A stretch of 64,000 nt of DNA, from contig JALRHH010000002.1 in assembly GCA_023253175.1 (NCBI GenBank), positions 199 through 64,198 of the forward strand, written 5' to 3'. The position numbers and the translations under genes are program-made. A model generated the notes under the pieces. It saw only the letters and a list, made by a program, of their open reading frames with translations. It was not told the origin of the DNA and did no database searches. Within the stretch, counting starts at the first letter, position 1. Every line of letters starts with the position of its first letter. Positions 16,592-57,848 of this stretch are shown here, piece after piece. This DNA comes from Candidatus Saccharimonadia bacterium. GTDB taxonomy: Bacteria > Patescibacteriota > Saccharimonadia > Saccharimonadales > JALRHH01.

Positions 16592-17155
16592 TTAGCAGTT
16601 AATGCTCTTAAGCTGATTCTTGAGCTGCTGGGTAAGCTGGGCAATAATCAAATCGTGTCTTTTTGTCTCGAGAGATTGGGCAGCTTTCTGTTTAGTACTA
16701 AATGATAGATTGGCGCTACTGTATTTATTTATAATGGATTGCTGGGCTTCTTTGTAACGCGTATCTTCTGCCGCTTGTTTGGCGGTATTTTCACTGAGAT
16801 ATAGCTGTTTAAGCTTTTGGCAGGCGGTCTGATAGGTTGACTCAGTATTAGATGGCATAGCCTGTTCGGCGCTCGTGACGGCTTTTGACGGCTCTACTGC
16901 AATCAGTTCTGTTTGCGAAAGCTCTACTTTGTCTGTTTCCTGGAGTTGTTCTGCCTTCACCTGGCCTGATGTGTCATGTTTGGTTTGTGTAGACGAAGAT
17001 ATATTGGTTTGATGAAATCTCGCAAAGATAATTGCACCAAATGCCAAAATACCAATCACCATAAACAGCAAAAAACCCATGCTGTGCAAGCTTTTTTTCT
17101 GCAGCATACGCGGAAAGTGCCTTCGTTTAACGTTTAAAAAATACCATAAGCCCAA
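16592..17155 (-). CDS. membrane-anchored hypothetical protein
   Basis: One TM helix (GFLLFMVIGILAFGAIIFA) followed by a Gln/Ala/Ser-rich helical region. The start may be the internal Met at 17107. Confidence 0.5.
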   Translation of the reverse strand: MGLWYFLNVKRRHFPRMLQKKSLHSMGFLLFMVIGILAFGAIIFARFHQTNISSSTQTKHDTSGQVKAEQLQETDKVELSQTELIAVEPSKAVTSAEQAMPSNTESTYQTACQKLKQLYLSENTAKQAAEDTRYKEAQQSIINKYSSANLSFSTKQKAAQSLETKRHDLIIAQLTQQLKNQLKSINC

Positions 17156-17245: not shown

Positions 17246-17518
17246 TTATTGGGCCTTCTGCTCAGCAACGATTGTCTCTATAAACGCTATTTCAGCGAGA
17301 TGTTCGTCAGCTTTTACTCGCTGCTCGGCTATCATCTGCTCGGCATTTTCTGCTACAAATTGCTCATAATCTTCAGCTACCAACCGATCGAAAAGCTCTT
17401 GTATAGTTTTGCCGTCAAGCTGACATAGTCTTGGAATCCACCGGGCAGTGCTAGGCCTCATACGTACGTTTACCTGCCGGGTAAACTTCTCGTCGCCAAA
17501 TTCATTACTCTTCAACAT
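17246..17518 (-). CDS. hypothetical protein (90 aa)
   Basis: ORF only, with an acidic helical C-terminus. Track ORF 17240..17428(+) is antisense to it. Confidence 0.4.
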   Translation of the reverse strand: MLKSNEFGDEKFTRQVNVRMRPSTARWIPRLCQLDGKTIQELFDRLVAEDYEQFVAENAEQMIAEQRVKADEHLAEIAFIETIVAEQKAQ

Positions 17519-17641: not shown

Positions 17642-18586
17642 CTACTCGGTCATGCTCTGGGCTGCTGCTAGATAATCATTCAGGATAGCTTCGACTTCGG
17701 GCGGAGTAAGCTTGCTACCACCAACACGCGGGCTACCACCAATGATCGTAGCACCTCCCCACTTATCATCAGTGGCACCTTCCGCTTCATTCAGTCTTGC
17801 GATAAGTGACGGAATGTCAAAAGGTATAAATTCTGATTTCCTACCAATCGTATAGCGCCATTTTCCACCGGCTAGCTCTTGCGCCGCCACGTACGCATCC
17901 ACGCCGTCGACTAGGGCACCTACCCTACCGTCCTTGCCTAATTCCTGTATCATACTCCATGTTTTGCCGCCACCAATCCTCTTGTATCTCGTATCCAATT
18001 CTATAGATTCACCACGGCCCATTAAATGCTGAGAAATACGACTTTCTACACTTTGTATAACCGAACGATATTGCCCATTGTCCTTTTTAGCCATCTCGCC
18101 ACTGGCCCGAAACAGCGTATAAGGCTCGAATACCCATGCCAATTCACCAATGATTTTCAGATTCTTATCATACGGAAAGGCACCAGCAGTAACATCTAAA
18201 GTCCCCGCAACATTGATAAACCTGTTCAAAGCCGGAGAAGGATTTTTTGTTTGGCTCATATTGTTGAGCAGAAACCATGCGGCGCACACATCTTGGTCAC
18301 AGTCATTTACAAACACCTTCGGCGCAAAGACACCCTCAGGGCTAAATGCCTTATCTAGTCCCATTCGGGTGTACATCAGTATCTGTTGGGCAGTCGAGAG
18401 TGTAGCCAGCCTATCAACATCTTCGTGGTGATTGGCATTTAAGTATGGTCCTTCTGCATTATACCGGGGCACACCCGAAACATATCCGTCTAAGGCAATA
18501 GACCCTACTGGATGGGTTACTATAAACTCATCCCAATTTACTGGAGGAACTTCTGATCTAACATGCAGTTCAGCACTCATAAGCAC
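17642..18586 (-). CDS. hypothetical protein (314 aa)
   Basis: Long ORF with no shadow competitors. Contains a His/Asp cluster (NANHHEDVD ... NDCDQD) that could bind metal. No family recognised. Confidence 0.55.
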   Translation of the reverse strand: MLMSAELHVRSEVPPVNWDEFIVTHPVGSIALDGYVSGVPRYNAEGPYLNANHHEDVDRLATLSTAQQILMYTRMGLDKAFSPEGVFAPKVFVNDCDQDVCAAWFLLNNMSQTKNPSPALNRFINVAGTLDVTAGAFPYDKNLKIIGELAWVFEPYTLFRASGEMAKKDNGQYRSVIQSVESRISQHLMGRGESIELDTRYKRIGGGKTWSMIQELGKDGRVGALVDGVDAYVAAQELAGGKWRYTIGRKSEFIPFDIPSLIARLNEAEGATDDKWGGATIIGGSPRVGGSKLTPPEVEAILNDYLAAAQSMTE

Positions 18587-18667
18587 ACTGTAACATATTT
18601 ATATATGTGCAGATAAGTCATGAACCCTATGAGGGACGGCTACAAAAATGTCCGCAGGATATCCTGG

Positions 18668-18745
18668 CCCTCACGGGCAGTACCCTCAGATACTCACCAA
18701 AGTAAAAAGCCCATCCTATGATGAGCCTTTTACTTTGGTGGAGCT
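18668..18745. repeat. 78-bp direct repeat, copy A (duplicate of tmRNA 3' tip plus its terminator and downstream sequence)
   Basis: ccctcacgggcagtaccctcagatactcaccaaagtaaaaagcccatcctatgatgagccttttactttggtggagct matches 19698..19775 with 3 mismatches by hand alignment. Confidence 0.9.
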
Positions 18746-18897
18746 TATAGATAAAAGTTGGCATTTATTTGAAGCAGAACTGGGGAGATTGAGAGATTTA
18801 ATGCCCTACGGCGTATGGGAACAAACTCCTATAGTATGCCTGGGGATTAGAGCGCTAAAAAGGGGCTTATGTGTACTGTCATTAAACGAGATCTGAA

Positions 18898-19509
18898 TTA
18901 ATACAAACTATCAAGATCAGCTATAGACTCTCGAATTTGCCTAAGCATTTCATCTTGGTTGAAGCTACGCGGTGCAGAGCTAGGGTCATTAATAAACCCG
19001 TGTGCTCGTTCTATATACTCGCCTACACGACGATTCCGCAGTGTAGTCTTGAGGCTCTGGAGACTAAAAAGTCCTTCTCCTGACGTACCGAGACGAGTCC
19101 AACCCTTAACTTCAATACAGCCCTGATAGTTACCCTCTTCATCTCTGGCGCTTACATTACAAGTTTCAATGTAAGGAAAGTAGTCTCCATCTGAAAGGAA
19201 GATATCAAGCAAGCGATTGATACGCCTGAGCTCTACGTGTGCGGATTCCATTACTTCGCTAGCTTTTCGATCAGGGTCTACTACAGCGTAACCTTTAACT
19301 AGGCTATATACGTAAGATTGGATTTGGTAAGGACCTATGCCCTGCTGCAAATACCACGAGACTACCTCTCTGTCCTGCTCATCAAGCCCTCTGAAGAAAG
19401 TCTCTGCTCTCCCCCCCCCTGAATAATCGGGTATGCCAGAAAGAACCATGCTCGCTGTGTTATGAGCGTCCTGCGGGCGTTCTTGGGGATTTTCGATGCC
19501 TACTGTCAT
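18898..19509 (-). CDS. hypothetical protein (203 aa) bracketed by the 78-bp repeats
   Basis: Clean ORF with no recognised motif. It is the only gene between repeat copies A and B. Confidence 0.55.
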   Translation of the reverse strand: MTVGIENPQERPQDAHNTASMVLSGIPDYSGGGRAETFFRGLDEQDREVVSWYLQQGIGPYQIQSYVYSLVKGYAVVDPDRKASEVMESAHVELRRINRLLDIFLSDGDYFPYIETCNVSARDEEGNYQGCIEVKGWTRLGTSGEGLFSLQSLKTTLRNRRVGEYIERAHGFINDPSSAPRSFNQDEMLRQIRESIADLDSLY

Positions 19510-19697
19510 AAAGTTATATCATATAACATATATTCGTAATTTGTAAATGATTGGCAAAACAAAAACCTCTGTGTTAACAGGGTTTAAAGTGCTTATGGTG
19601 GGCACGAACTCTTATTGATCCGCTCGGCAACATTTTGCCAAGCCAAAATGCTCGCAGGGCAAGCAAGGAAAACTCAAACTGCCGCTGGCAGTTCTCA

Positions 19698-19775
19698 CCC
19701 TCACGGGCAGCACCCTCAGATATTTACCAAAGTAAAAAGCCCATCCTATGATGAGCCTTTTACTTTGGTGGAGCT
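19698..19775. repeat. 78-bp direct repeat, copy B (native tmRNA 3' tip plus terminator)
   Basis: Overlaps the last 10 nt of ssrA (AGCTCCACCA on the minus strand) and the terminator hairpin. Confidence 0.9.
19727..19765 (-). terminator. intrinsic terminator of ssrA
   Basis: Minus strand AAAAGGCTCATC-ATAG-GATGGGCTTTTT followed by ACTTTGG, directly after the encoded CCA. Confidence 0.7.
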
Positions 19776-20148
19776 GGTGGGTACTGCCCCCACGTCCGCT
19801 AGTTCAACTGATTAGTCTGTCCTACAGGTTTAGGCTATTTAATCACTTCTACAGCTGATAATAGCCAAAACGCAGTAGAAGTTTGATTCTTGTCTTAAGC
19901 CAACTTCGAATCAAGAGTTAGCAGCGTCCAGAAAAATATAAAACGCTATTGTACTATCTGGCATCGAACAAAAGCATTGCTGTTAATTAAATTAAGCAGC
20001 TAGCGCAAAGGCTGCGCGACGTCCGAGAACGTTGTCAACCATTGCTGTAAGTGAATCTTTTGCATCTATTCAGATGTATCTATGACGCTGATAAGCGACC
20101 TGCTGATCTAACCGTTAAAGTCCAACGTCGAGCTTAAAATTCAGCCCC
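19766..20148 (-). ncRNA. ssrA: tmRNA (SsrA)
   Basis: Minus strand begins GGGGCTGAATTTTAAGCTCGACG and ends GGACGTGGGGGCAGTACCCACCAGCTCCACCA. The acceptor stem GGGGCTG/CAGCTCC includes the G3:U wobble used by AlaRS. An internal reading frame ...GTT CTC GGA CGT CGC GCA GCC TTT GCG CTA GCT GCT TAA gives a tag ending ...LGRRAAFALAA-stop. Confidence 0.9.
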
Positions 20149-30805: not shown

Positions 30806-30938
30806 TAGTATAAGTGTACCTGTTTAGAGGTAATTTGAGTAGCCTTTGAGGTAGATGTTTTTTTGGATTGGAGGGGGATCAGCTATCATGCACACTTAAG
30901 GCAAACATACTCTGGAATCGACCTACCTACGGCAGGCC

Positions 30939-31045
30939 CGAAATTTCGCGACTGAAAACAAGTTTTCATCGGAAAGTTTCCTTGCGAATTGCCACAGGCA
31001 ATTCTCACCCTGTTGCGGCAACAGGATTTCGATTTCGCCCGGCGA
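30939..31045. promoter_or_regulatory. run of six short near-perfect palindromes upstream of the pyk-pgk-tpiA operon
   Basis: The six are cgaaatttcg (30939-48), tgaaaac-aa-gttttca (30953-68), ggaaa-g-tttcc (30971-81), gaattgcc-aca-ggcaattc (30986-31004), cctgttgc-g-gcaacagg (31009-25) and tcgcc-c-ggcga (31035-45). Function unknown. Confidence 0.3.
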
Positions 31046-31052
31046 GCGACAT

Positions 31053-31087
31053 AGAAAAACACCCATCACATGGATGGGTGTTTTTCT
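31053..31087 (-). terminator. intrinsic terminator of tRNA-Glu
   Basis: agaaaaacacccatc-acat-ggatgggtgtttttct. On the minus strand the stem is followed by a T-run. Confidence 0.75.
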
Positions 31088-31088
31088 A

Positions 31089-31163
31089 TGGTGATCCCGA
31101 GGGGAATCGAACCCCTGTTGCCAGGATGAAAACCTGGTGTCCTAACCGTTAGACGACGGGACC
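31089..31163 (-). tRNA. tRNA-Glu (anticodon UUC), CCA encoded
   Basis: Minus strand GGTCCCGTCGTCTAACGGTTAGGACACCAGGTTTTCATCCTGGCAACAGGGGTTCGATTCCCCTCGGGATCACCA. Folds as a cloverleaf by eye and is closely similar to bacterial tRNA-Glu. Confidence 0.9.
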
Positions 31164-49471: not shown

Positions 49472-49700
49472 CTTCCAGTCATATTTTCAGTATATGCATC
49501 CATTCCCAAAAAGCGTGTTGTGAAAGTGCGCAGCAGCATATTAGCCTCGGCCCAGACTGTATTGTTGTATAATCCTGGTAAGTGGATTTCCACTGAGACC
49601 TAAAGCCACTCCTAAAAAAGAAGGTATGGTCACCAAATCTATAGCGAAAAAAATCCCGTCGTTTGGGTACTTTTCGCTATAGTCATAGTCCGAAAGGAAT

Positions 49701-49964
49701 ATGGGCGGCCGAAAGGTCGTCGCCCAGCGGCGGGTTTTTTGTATGCCGAAAATCCAGGAGAGCAAAATTAATATGCCCAACTTAGTTAAAGATAAATCTA
49801 GTTACCTACCCGTACTGCTTGTAGCCACTATAGTCATACTAGTAGGTATTGTGCTGTACGCTTTATACGGACCATCAGAGGCTGACAAACTGCCTAATAC
49901 ACCAGATATTCACCAGCAGATGCTAGACGAAACTGTTCGCCAAAACGAATTAAACTCTAACTGA
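49701..49964 (+). CDS. possible small membrane protein
   Basis: Contains TM helix YLPVLLVATIVILVGIVLYALY. The likely start is an internal Met at 49743 or 49773. It is the only plus-strand ORF in the island. ORF-only evidence. Confidence 0.3.
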   Translation: MGGRKVVAQRRVFCMPKIQESKINMPNLVKDKSSYLPVLLVATIVILVGIVLYALYGPSEADKLPNTPDIHQQMLDETVRQNELNSN

Positions 49965-53346: not shown

Positions 53347-53603
53347 TATATGTAACTGTGGCGCCTATGCAACCATGAGCAATACAATCTGAAAAATATT
53401 TTTGTTTTAGCCATAAGTACGATACTATACAGATATCTGCTAACAGCAGCATCAAGAGTACGGTTAGAGATCTAGCTCGATGATCCGTCGGCAACCTGCG
53501 AAATGTAAGGTGCTCCACCTAGACCAATTACTAACAATAATTGGAAGGATGTGGTTACAACATACTTGAAGCCCATCCTTTCTAGAGATAGAAGGGATTT
53601 TTA

Positions 53604-57622: not shown

Positions 57623-57641
57623 CTGGTACACCCGGCAAGAT
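57623..57641. repeat. 19-nt duplicate of the tRNA-Arg 3' end
   Basis: ctggtacacccggcaagat is identical to 57771..57789, which covers the tRNA 3' acceptor/T-stem plus CCA. Confidence 0.85.
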
Positions 57642-57771
57642 AATGCACATTAATCTGTGCGCCGAGAATACTCGGGCAGCAGACTAATGACCGAACTTTA
57701 GCTCGAATCTTGTCTCGATAAATCGAGCAGAAAACAAAAACCACCCACAGGGGATGGTTTTAATTTTCTCC

Positions 57772-57848
57772 TGGTACACCCGGCAAGATTCGAACTTGCG
57801 ACACCTGGTTCCGAAGACCAGTGCTCTAATCCGCTGAGCTACGGGTGC
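57772..57848 (-). tRNA. tRNA-Arg (anticodon UCG), CCA encoded
   Basis: Minus strand GCACCCGTAGCTCAGCGGATTAGAGCACTGGTCTTCGGAACCAGGTGTCGCAAGTTCGAATCTTGCCGGGTGTACCA. Anticodon loop is CTTCGGA. A terminator hairpin lies at ~57738-57765. Confidence 0.88.

Follow-up and report, generated by a model that had tools for sequence, protein, structure and literature searches.

Cis-mobilizable elements (CIMEs) and their accretion at att sites have been described for the ICEs of Streptococcus, and a CIME derives from a recognisable ICE with which it shares its att sites. The attC sites of integrons and the attP(+) site of CTX phage are recombination sites that act as folded single strands. Saccharibacteria and other bacteria of the candidate phyla radiation (CPR) have genomes of about 1 Mb and an epibiotic lifestyle, and their mobile DNA is poorly charted. 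[quoted passage not shown] Islands in tRNA genes duplicate their target from the T-loop or the anticodon loop onward (PMC4383910, PMC3146451), and the Islander definition of an island rests on an integrase gene inside it (PMC4383910).

Here we describe the region downstream of the tmRNA gene in a 64-kb stretch of DNA from a Candidatus Saccharibacteria genome, the whole of which is referred to as the window. There is a direct repeat at the 3' end of this gene, and the features that make it up are as follows.

19766..20148, minus strand: ssrA, the tmRNA gene, full length with the CCA encoded (Rfam RF00023, model positions 1–374)
19682..19775, minus strand: repeat copy B, made up of the last 10 nt of ssrA, the terminator hairpin, an inverted T-arm copy and the start of the module centre
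19727..19768, minus strand: bidirectional-type terminator hairpin formed by inverted repeats, the stem of which takes in the CCA of ssrA
18898..19509, minus strand: 203-aa ORF, belonging to a small protein family without known function
18652..18745, minus strand: repeat copy A, made up of the right half of a split direct copy of the ssrA 3' end, DR2 (AGCTCCACCA, 18736–18745), a second terminator hairpin (18697–18738) and a second inverted T-arm copy (18668–18685)

The tmRNA gene scores 72.7 bits in comparison with an Rfam gathering score of 47; it was not called by ARAGORN. The repeat search aligned 18652–18745 with 19682–19775 (94 nt, 89 %) at an offset of 1030 bp, and on recounting 84 of the 94 positions are identical. 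A preliminary description of this locus had reported a 78-bp repeat containing the ssrA tip and terminator, with its copies 1030 bp apart and a single gene between them. Our recount gives the same 75 identical positions out of 78 (mismatches at 18681, 18693 and 18695), and the 203-aa ORF is the only long ORF between the copies. The content given for the repeat (the last 10 nt of ssrA, the terminator and some flank) is also right, but its extent needs correcting because outside the 78-nt core similarity tapers off over another 16 nt. The last 10 nt of ssrA, AGCTCCACCA, form the end of an exact 50-nt block (19726–19775 and 18696–18745), the terminator hairpin has 21-nt arms in both copies and the repeat runs about 68–85 nt beyond the end of the gene. 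No third copy of the 50-mer was found in the window with up to 8 mismatches allowed, and the repeat had no match in phage and plasmid collections. The terminator hairpin is the tip of a longer imperfect hairpin in which the T-arm pairs with its inverted copy; folded as DNA, 19690–19800 gives −28.2 kcal/mol (z = −5.9) and none of 200 shuffles was as stable. Two plus-strand ORFs, 18648..18896 and 19615..19815, share the peptide KVKSPSYDEPFTLVEL and are read-throughs of the repeat, as had been proposed. The base composition of the region is unremarkable. Termination of ssrA today is at copy B, and copy A probably terminates the 203-aa gene.

The sequence directly after ssrA is a unit of about 170 nt without an ORF (19596–19765), which we call a module. 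The order of its parts after the gene is terminator hairpin, inverted T-arm copy, conserved centre and DR2, an 18–21-nt direct copy of the host gene 3' end that always starts in the T-loop. There are further modules at two tRNA genes of the window.

19698..19715, minus strand: inverted T-arm copy 'd', GGGTGCTGCCCGTGAGGG, matching the T-arm reverse complement at 10 of 11 positions
19620..19697, minus strand: module centre, with hairpins P1 and P2 in the RNAalifold consensus
19596..19609, minus strand: X, the left half of DR2 (GTTCGTGCCCACCA), a direct copy of the ssrA 3' end cut after CCCACCA, as aligned with L018
57624..57848, minus strand: second module, at tRNA-Arg (57772–57848), with a terminator, an inverted T-arm copy at 57701–57714 and an 18-nt direct copy at 57624–57641
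30910..31163, minus strand: decayed module, at tRNA-Glu (31089–31163), with an inverted T-arm copy at 31019–31042, a centre-like hairpin at 30980–31010 and a degenerate direct copy at 30910–30923

P1 is a hairpin of the form GAGAACTGCC-loop-GGCAGTT followed by a U-rich run, and it scores as terminator-like. In P2, TTGCTTG pairs with CGAGCRG to close a variable hairpin. A 24-nt block, GGCAGTTTGAGTTTTCCTTGCTTG, is identical in all five instances that have this centre ('type-A' copies). Three more tmRNA genes and one tRNA-Leu gene are followed by the same core, and it is invariant although the KsgA proteins of these genomes are only 59–86 % identical to that of the window. The tRNA-Glu module was found by nhmmer with a profile of the centre; tRNA-Glu modules of the same architecture are also present in L035 and L036, in the latter as two identical tandem copies. 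Of 19 tRNA genes, 4 are followed or preceded within 450 nt by a copy of their own last 16 nt. Since the module recurs behind other tmRNA and tRNA genes, in other Saccharibacteria as well as in the window, duplicated 3' ends are commonplace in these genomes.

The inverted T-arm copy is matched to its host gene, beating at least 95 % of shuffles in 10 of 11 instances (in 8 of them no more than 1 of 500 shuffles did as well), and it is absent at the tRNA-Lys control. At ssrA in the window the score of 'd' was reached by 20 of 500 shuffles; its counterpart is clearer in L018, L080 and L078, and its position is constant across the other module instances. Behind DR2, L080 has the native ssrA terminator that is seen in L033, L022, L035 and L020, which have no module there (score 65, 0 of 200 shuffles). 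This shows the module to be an insertion. L033, L022 and L035 thus give a clean empty/occupied pair with L080, for the module only. The distribution is patchy: L019, L033, L022 and L035 have no module and both closer and more distant genomes have one.

No description of such a module was found in a literature search, and no Rfam family matches it. There was no match in phage and plasmid collections by blastn, and nothing was found when viral contigs were scanned with the module core. Matches of viral contigs to the ssrA tip look like permuted (two-piece) tmRNA genes, and those to the inverted T-arm motif look like chance matches in unrelated sequence; both were set aside. By eye there are no terminal inverted repeats of the MITE or IS type between the post-CCA and pre-DR2 sequences. 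The duplicated segment is 18–21 nt long and gene-specific, and the sole inverted relation is that to the host T-arm. A small ORF within the module is unlikely, given a 1-nt insertion in the hairpin loop of L081.

L018 is the closest species representative (KsgA 86 % identical). Its gene order is G5–KsgA–MarR–ssrA–(262 nt)–membrane protein–DEAD helicase, and the 262 nt between ssrA and the membrane-protein gene do not contain the 203-aa gene or the 312-aa and 90-aa genes that follow it in the window. The region is lineage-specific. The module, however, is there in L018 too, and in it the second copy of the ssrA end (19–23 nt) is unbroken. The parts of the window that bear on this comparison are listed below.

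18746..19595, minus strand: cassette within DR2, 850 bp, abutted exactly by X and AGCTCCACCA
19553–19595, minus strand: left end of the cassette, resembling a tRNA trailer and with a terminator-like hairpin
19518–19547, minus strand: promoter-like site of the cassette, TTTACA-18-TATGAT
17642..18580, minus strand: 312-aa protein, DHH/DHHA1 phosphoesterase-like
17246..17518, minus strand: 90-aa ORF of unknown function, within the stretch missing from L018
17166..17181, minus strand: TTGTAATTTATTTCAC, from which point the window is again homologous to L018; the membrane-protein gene 16592..17155 is downstream of it

The window and L018 are identical at 118 of 133 positions across the inverted T-arm copy, the centre and DR2, and the similarity stops exactly at CCCACCA. 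In L018 the intact DR2 is GTTCGTACCCACCAGCTCCACCA, and joining X to AGCTCCACCA with a 1-nt overlap rebuilds this 23-nt sequence. The junction in copy A, GGTGAG, agrees with the sequence after DR2 in L018 (GGTGAT) and not with copy B. The alignment therefore indicates that the cassette split a pre-existing DR2 and that insertion of the 1-kb unit did not make the repeat. Consistent with this, copy A consists of the right half of DR2, the second terminator and an inverted T-arm copy, which means that the repeat predates the cassette. The view that the locus is an ssrA-targeting remnant thus stands in so far as there is a recombination scar at the ssrA 3' end, but not in so far as the repeat was taken as the product of the 1-kb insertion. 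Past its inverted T-arm copy, copy A does not go on into anything that can be recognised as a module centre (212 of 300 shuffles reach its score), so that a 'second module' is at best a truncated one. We gave up the simpler arrangement, an intact module with the 203-aa gene behind it, and prefer insertion into DR2; the match of the sequence after X to the second terminator of L018 is not significant (100 of 300 shuffles).

The left end of the cassette (TAAGCACTTTAAAC...) resembles sequences found after other CCA ends, namely the tRNA-Met trailer in L063 and L066 and a 3' flank in L010 (0 of 500 shuffles each). On the other side, the 3' flank runs for 152 nt past the 203-aa ORF. There are CCCACCA and CCACCA microhomologies at the joins, and the duplication flanking the cassette is of 1 nt only. 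The pseudo-3'-ends of the array are at 19766–19775, 19596–19609 and 18736–18745.

The preliminary description had asked whether relatives lack the unit, and L018 does lack the three genes; its junction, however, does not have the form of a clean site from which the 1030-bp unit is missing. Among the relatives the distance from ssrA to the next conserved gene ranges from 0.26 to about 9.5 kb. Judged from their ORF sequences, the longer stretches appear to hold ordinary genes. L078 and L079 differ by a 1391-bp indel that has no repeats at its ends and lies about 120 nt past a module.

No integrase or recombinase was found in the window or beside ssrA in the relatives, in agreement with the preliminary description. 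This is a weak negative, as it rests on the lack of Pfam matches for the three ORFs and on tblastn with XerD and lambda Int sequences. Contigs with the exact 203-aa gene (13), the 312-aa gene (13) or the exact MarR gene beside ssrA (16) are either occupied or end inside the repeat. The same-species contigs carrying the 203-aa or 312-aa gene have no alternative arrangement, and the excision junction that had been suggested as a check was not seen in them; neither this nor an empty site for the cassette was found in the contigs examined. The remnant appears to be fixed, and nothing indicates present mobility.

The locus resembles the Dehalococcoides ssrA-GIs in having tandem units downstream of a single-copy tmRNA gene (PMC3146451). 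In contrast with them, its units are only 0.17–1.5 kb with no recombinase found, its repeat runs about 70–85 nt past the gene and its smallest unit has no ORF and contains an inverted T-arm copy. The likeness to Islander islands is that the insert regenerates the target gene and leaves the displaced 3' fragment at the far end, as the module does in L080, L018, L081 and L078. In the window the target gene is intact at one end, as a full-length tmRNA gene to the encoded CCA. The displaced fragment in copy A is 10 nt of acceptor stem; together with X it is 19–23 nt from the T-loop, but it then bounds the ORF-less module and not the 1-kb unit. In contrast with such islands, no integrase was found among the three ORFs or elsewhere in the window, and the module is smaller than any attP-plus-int unit. 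As in CIMEs and accretion, there are units flanked by att-like repeats of the same target in which no recombination genes were found. No autonomous partner element is known here, in contrast with CIMEs; the search covered the 64-kb window, out of a genome of about 0.95 Mb, together with viral contigs and phage and plasmid collections. There was no within-species excision or presence/absence polymorphism in the contigs examined. The likeness to attC and attP(+) is one of shape only: a long imperfect hairpin made from inverted copies of the target, with small gene cassettes adjoining. Neither GTT nor AAC occurs as a triplet in the exact 50-nt repeat, which leaves no attC core GTTRRRY and no complement of it; neither paired RYYYAAC and GTTRRRY boxes nor IntI was found, and the cassette has a promoter-like site of its own. 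There is no dif-like site.

Taken together, the data suggest that the DNA downstream of ssrA is a fixed array in which pseudo-3'-ends delimit the units, an integrase-less scar of recombination that took place there repeatedly, and we hold this reading with about even confidence. It builds on the layout of the locus as observed, the precise break in DR2, the host-matched recurrence of the module, one clean module pair and the absence of three genes from the nearest species. Modules would insert at the T-loop of tRNA and tmRNA genes, bringing a replacement 3' end and terminator, so that the former 3' end (DR2) comes to lie further downstream. A second terminator and an inverted T-arm copy would already have been present behind DR2 in this lineage, and about 80–94 nt would be repeated because this tandem-module structure pre-existed. 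The 850-bp cassette with the 203-aa gene would have recombined into DR2 later, splitting X from AGCTCCACCA. We infer this order of events; the joins may have been made by a recombinase acting in trans at tRNA-like 3' ends, and gene conversion or recent duplication may keep copies A and B 96 % alike. The 1-nt duplication at the cassette is unlike the signature of a tyrosine recombinase, with its 6–8-bp overlap, and counts against this reading. So do the unremarkable base composition, the failure to find a recombinase, an empty site for the cassette or an excision junction, the missing centre in copy A and the resident behaviour of the 312-aa gene.

A classical single integration would explain the same repeat as attR and attL (copies A and B) around a 1030-bp circular cassette that carried the ssrA tip, terminator and flank, with its integrase lost or acting in trans. 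A direct repeat with the ssrA tip does bracket one gene, that gene is missing from the nearest species, and a Logan contig, L008, has 1060 nt (1030 + 30), as expected of a circular unitig at k = 31. L008 starts at the first base of the exact repeat, however, which points to a branching low-coverage graph and not to an arbitrary cut in a circle. Moreover, 19596–19765 is orthologous to the module of L018, where there is no 203-aa gene, and is therefore older than the cassette; the break is inside DR2, away from the repeat boundary; and just 10 nt of the repeat lie in ssrA, whereas tRNA-gene islands duplicate from the T-loop or anticodon loop on. We consider single integration distinctly improbable. 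It is also unlikely that no site-specific process was involved, in which case the region downstream of ssrA would be a hotspot and copy A would have arisen by illegitimate or microhomology recombination or by gene conversion and been kept as a bidirectional terminator for the 203-aa gene. The variable length of this region, in which tblastn with XerD and lambda Int revealed no recombinase, the repeat-less indel between L078 and L079 and the microhomologies at the joins are all in keeping with such an origin. In contrast, the exact split of DR2 with nothing lost, the 18–21-nt direct copies that recur and always start from the T-loop, the inverted copies matched to each host at several genes, the clean pair of L080 and L033 and the perfect tandem module in L036 argue for a directed process.

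The module itself might not be mobile DNA but a conserved element with a function at tRNA and tmRNA loci, as a structured RNA transcribed past the terminator or as a site to which a protein binds. Selection would then maintain its inverted and direct copies of the 3' end, and the 203-aa gene would simply have landed in it. Conservation between the window and L018 is higher for the module (136 of 162 positions, 84 %) than for the tmRNA gene (277 of 408, 68 %); in the comparison of the window with L081, module and gene are conserved to the same degree (64–65 %). The invariant 24-nt core, the G–U pairs of the consensus fold on the sense strand and one compensatory change from C–G to T–A in P1 at tRNA-Glu would fit a functional element, and the insertion in L081 speaks against a coding role. 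This explanation is nevertheless distinctly unlikely: the module is patchily distributed, L036 has identical tandem copies, DR2 is broken here with no visible consequence, no Rfam family matches, and P1 and P2 are invariant and so provide no covariation. Alternatively, and we regard this as possible but rather doubtful, the module is an undescribed non-autonomous miniature element with the T-loop of tRNA and tmRNA genes as its homing site, with target-rewritten copies and a trans-acting enzyme. Its inverted T-arm copy would fold with the gene 3' end into a long hairpin, its 18–21-nt direct copy would span from about T-loop position 56–59 to the CCA, and these target-matched copies would flank a strongly conserved structured core. 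Such an element might be mobilised in trans by a recombinase of folded DNA or by RNA- or tRNA-primed copying, and DR2 might then be a landing site for small gene cassettes, that of the 203-aa gene among them.

If the reading as an array of units is true, the 3' ends of tRNA-type genes in Saccharibacteria are recombination sites that accumulate integrase-less units down to 170 nt, and such units can deliver single orphan genes beside essential RNA genes. In practice, a duplicated tRNA or tmRNA tip in these genomes should then not be read as a sign that an island or prophage lies close by, and the invariant 24-nt core offers a way to search for the partner enzyme or for an RNA product, should one exist. 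The finding as first made yields something more modest, a fixed remnant whose orphan gene has no known role.

The 203-, 312- and 90-aa proteins have no match in Pfam, PHROGs, PADLOC or NCBIfam, so the suggested search for phage relatives of the first two gave nothing, and PDB sequence-profile searches gave nothing credible. The 203-aa protein has three matches among 5.8 billion proteins, and its family comprises 29 representative clusters among 1.84 billion, from the members of which an alignment was built. The AlphaFold2 model, made from 3 sequences, has a pLDDT of 50 and was left out of the fold search. There is a G9 tract inside the ORF (19411–19419). Members of the family lie beside ssrA here and in housekeeping contexts elsewhere; the idea that they are always beside a tRNA gene was rejected, as two distant members are among housekeeping genes. 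The repeats of about 35 nt around a 79 %-identical homologue in L010 were considered as tRNA ends, but their geometry is not that of a tRNA, and the start of the cassette in the window is similar to the 3' repeat only. smpB was not found in the window or beside ssrA in the relatives with the query sequence used.

The genes to the left had been thought possibly part of the same remnant, and both the 312-aa and 90-aa genes are indeed missing from L018. The ORF had been called with 314 aa from a GTG start at 18586; we take the protein as 312 aa. Its AlphaFold2 model (pLDDT 92.5) has as top Foldseek matches pAp phosphatase, NrnA-type phosphodiesterases, GdpP and RecJ, with probabilities close to certainty for pAp phosphatase (8a8k) and high for the group of NrnA, TM1595 and GdpP, at TM-scores of only 0.3–0.35. 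The invariant columns include H51 H52, D93 D95 D97 and D129. The protein has at least 687 homologues in varied contexts, and the named ones are from CPR bacteria. The model thus suggests a DHH-phosphoesterase fold, and on the basis of this fold the protein, which is conserved across the CPR, was rejected as the missing recombinase. The gene behaves as a resident gene and not as typical island cargo, and its loss in L018 is as possible as its gain here.

The 3' end of the tmRNA gene (ssrA) is duplicated, and the two copies of the duplicated end enclose a single ORF. The features concerned are as follows:

17642-18580: gene for a 312-aa protein with no annotation, assessed from its predicted structure and homologues
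18898..19509, minus strand: 203-aa ORF, between repeat copies A and B
19766..20148, minus strand: ssrA, complete tmRNA (Rfam, 72.7 bits)
30910-31163: decayed module behind tRNA-Glu, with a 24-nt inverted T-arm copy (31019-31042) and a degenerate direct copy
57624-57848: module behind tRNA-Arg, with a terminator and an inverted T-arm copy (57701-57714); its centre differs from that of the ssrA module

ARAGORN makes no tmRNA call at 19766-20148 despite an Rfam score well above threshold, and island finders that depend on ARAGORN for tmRNA genes would overlook this locus. Copies A (18652-18745) and B (19682-19775) form the sole long direct repeat within 16-22 kb (94 nt, 89%). On recount they are identical at 84 of 94 positions, and at 75 of 78 across the span first reported, with an exact common block of 50 nt (18696-18745 = 19726-19775). 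In the orientation of ssrA each copy consists of AGCTCCACCA, which is the final 10 nt of ssrA, a hairpin with 21-nt arms and CCA within the stem, and a further ~30-45 nt past the hairpin. There is no third copy in the window. At ssrA, an inverted copy of the T-arm and the terminator can fold into a long hairpin with imperfect pairing (-28.2 kcal/mol, z = -5.9). The preliminary description of a tmRNA-tip repeat around one 203-aa ORF therefore holds, and the two plus-strand ORFs with a common peptide are, as it proposed, read-throughs of the repeat.

In L018, the nearest species representative, the ssrA end occurs again (GTACCCACCAGCTCCACCA) 177 nt past the true end, and the sequence between the two is 89% identical (118/133) to window positions 19596-19725. 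A scan of metagenome contigs with a 22-nt piece of the post-ssrA stretch found four further loci, which lie behind a tRNA-Leu gene (contigs L078 and L079) and behind two different tmRNA genes (L080 and L081). The order is the same in all instances. The 3' end of the RNA gene is followed by a hairpin with CCA in its stem, and then by an inverted copy of the T-arm of that same gene. Next come a conserved centre, whose 24-nt block GGCAGTTTGAGTTTTCCTTGCTTG does not vary among the five copies, and DR2, which repeats the last 18-21 nt of the gene in direct orientation and starts in the T-loop. A second terminator-like hairpin follows where the sequence is long enough. In 10 of 11 instances the inverted T-arm copy outscores 95% or more of the shuffles, and in eight it is equalled by at most 1 of 500; a tRNA-Lys control has no such copy.

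A like architecture with other or diverged centres is found behind tRNA-Arg and (decayed) tRNA-Glu in the window, and behind tRNA-Glu in L035 and L036. An exact 18-nt copy of the tRNA-Arg 3' end lies at 57624-57641, 132 nt downstream, and the hairpin of the window's tRNA-Glu module (GAATTGCC-TGT-GGCAATT) is one compensatory pair apart from that of the ssrA module. For 4 of 19 tRNA genes in the available sequences, the last 16 nt recur within 450 nt. L036 (265-717) has two identical 166-nt tandem units, each with the tRNA 3' end, terminator and module, followed by a third 3'-end copy, which suggests that they were gained in tandem recently. L078 and L079 are otherwise identical contigs that differ by a 1391-bp indel (L078 6271/6272; L079 2310-3700) about 120 nt beyond the tRNA-Leu module, and no repeat flanks the indel. 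At the end of the extra piece is an ORF whose product, going by its sequence alone, we take to be SRPBCC/Aha1-like.

The sequence following DR2 in L080 matches the sequence directly 3' of ssrA in four relatives with no module (L033, L022, L035 and L020), across the terminator and the subsequent GCTCATGCTTGCA (score 65, 0/200 shuffles). This indicates that the module is an insertion, with L080 and the module-less genomes as an occupied-versus-empty pair. Such a pattern is expected where an insert replaces the 3' end with its own and moves the original one away from the gene (PMC4383910), and the join in Dehalococcoides is likewise placed in the T-loop (PMC3146451). The distribution of the module across relatives is patchy. 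The module of L081 is as far from that of the window as the two tmRNA genes are from each other (64-65% identity), and in the comparison with L018 the module is more conserved (84%) than the tmRNA gene (68%); these identities count against a simple recent spread. Two helices are proposed by RNAalifold, their G-U pairs being on the sense strand; both are invariant and therefore allow no covariation test. No Rfam family matches the module. The core could be an RNA, or else a site for protein binding or recombination.

In the window DR2 is in two halves, GTTCGTGCCCACCA (19609-19596) and AGCTCCACCA (18745-18736). Joined with an overlap of one A, they rebuild the GTTCGTACCCACCAGCTCCACCA of L018, so the 850 bp between them (18746-19595), which carry the 203-aa ORF, are a clean insertion into DR2. 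Copy A is therefore the right half of DR2 plus the sequence already behind it. It follows that the A/B repeat arose from a tandem-module structure or from later gene conversion and not from the insertion of the cassette itself. In L018 a weak resemblance remains between the sequence behind DR2 and the one behind ssrA, and the former has GGTG in common with copy A; copy A has no recognisable module centre after its inverted T-arm copy. The left end of the cassette (TAAGCACTTTAAAC-hairpin-TTTTTGTTTTGCC) resembles three sequences elsewhere (0/500 shuffles each): the tRNA-Met trailer of L063, the beginning of L066, and the 3' flank of a 79%-identical homologue of the 203-aa gene in L010. In every case a ...CCA end precedes this sequence, and the cassette may have joined at a sequence mimicking a tRNA 3' end. 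A promoter-like site (TTTACA-18-TATGAT) lies within the cassette, 9 nt upstream of the start codon.

The 203-aa protein matches no family in four libraries; its relatives number three in a set of 5.8 billion proteins and 29 representative clusters in one of 1.84 billion. The family alignment has conserved PD, DRE-x-VxWY, VDPxR, FFP, GW and DDP motifs. Two distant members are situated among housekeeping genes, and one member (L011) starts 22 nt past a tRNA-like 3' end. In a 302-aa member, P0131, the N-terminal ~40 residues are SmpB (Pfam PF01668, E = 6.8e-6), followed by ~80 residues aligning to nothing in the family and then the family domain, so in that genome the gene abuts a truncated smpB. 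SmpB is the partner of tmRNA. Within the 203-aa ORF, a G9 tract on the coding strand (19411-19419) encodes GGG where homologues carry GG. The tract could be slippage-prone; the contigs retrieved with the exact protein are all in-frame by selection, which makes length variants invisible among them.

Phage and plasmid collections hold no sequence similar to the repeat. The 90-aa protein drew no hit in the libraries searched. The 312-aa protein matches no Pfam model, but its confidently predicted structure (pLDDT 92.5) matches DHH/DHHA1 phosphoesterases (pAp phosphatase, NrnA-type), which suggests a fold of this kind. Its family has invariant HH and DxDxD motifs and at least 687 homologues, whose contexts vary; those few for which a source is named are from CPR bacteria. 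It looks like a resident gene. We considered it as a recombinase and rejected this on account of the phosphoesterase-like fold.

Compared by KsgA with the loci of species-representative genomes, the window falls in Candidatus Saccharibacteria/Saccharimonadales, with L018 as the top match (86%). The order G5-KsgA-MarR-ssrA is kept among relatives. The next conserved gene lies 0.26 kb to about 9.5 kb past ssrA and encodes a membrane protein, DEAD helicase, trehalase or MetRS; the longer stretches hold ORFs that look like ordinary genes, judged only on the ORF sequences, and tblastn with XerD and lambda Int hit no recombinase in them. The membrane-protein gene of L018 begins 262 nt past ssrA. Homology with L018 extends from ssrA to ...CCCACCA (window 19596) and picks up again at 17181-17166, so ~2.4 kb are particular to the window's lineage, and may reflect either gain there or loss in L018. 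The post-ssrA region of L018 is without the 203-, 312/314- and 90-aa genes; it has the module and an intact second ssrA end.

Public-assembly contigs were read for the exact 203-aa protein (n=13), the 312-aa protein (n=13) and the neighbouring MarR protein (n=16). All those that cross the region have one arrangement, and neither an empty site nor the excision junction envisaged earlier was seen among them. Short k = 31 contigs stop within the 50-nt exact repeat, as expected of assembly-graph breaks, and the length of one (L009) fits such breaks (980 + 30 + 30 = 1040 nt). The Logan contig L008 (window 18696-19755) is 1060 nt long. This equals one 1030-bp repeat period with 30 nt of overlap, and a circular unitig would have that length at k = 31. 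A low-coverage branching-graph artefact is more likely than a circle because the contig begins at exactly the first base of the repeat.

The locus belongs to a theme already known, scars left by recombination at the 3' ends of tmRNA and tRNA genes. Among known systems it comes closest to the tandem ssrA islands of Dehalococcoides and to cis-mobilizable units that lack an integrase. In contrast with these, the units here are 0.17-1.5 kb, the smallest has no gene but an invariant core and an inverted T-arm copy matched to its target, and the orphan-gene cassette sits inside the 3' end that the module displaced. Recombination acting in trans at tRNA-like ends, with its product since fixed, would account for the locus, and we give this mechanism roughly an even chance. 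A single classical integration remains as an alternative. The integration-scar reading is right as to a recombination scar at the tmRNA 3' end, but the split DR2 means that the repeat does not come from cassette insertion. Consistent with the earlier statement that no integrase is present, no recombinase domain was detected in the 203-, 312- or 90-aa ORFs, and tblastn with XerD and lambda Int (approximate queries, and so a weak negative) found none in the window or beside ssrA in close relatives. Base composition is flat throughout the region.

Undirected rearrangement also remains; the repeat-less ends of the 1391-bp indel speak for it and the ordered architecture of the module against it. 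So does the reading of the module as a resident functional element; its conservation relative to the tmRNA gene speaks for this and the module-less genomes against it.

Other RNAs were also seen. Three IMG/VR viral contigs (L067, L069 and L070) carry this clade's ssrA 3' tip within apparent permuted (two-piece) tmRNA genes, in which a CCA-ending acceptor piece is followed by a GGGGCTGA... 5' piece. Elsewhere in the window there is a LOOT RNA (Rfam RF03000, 67.8 bits) at 49597-49721 and a SAM riboswitch (Rfam RF00162, 48.7 bits) at 53446-53555.
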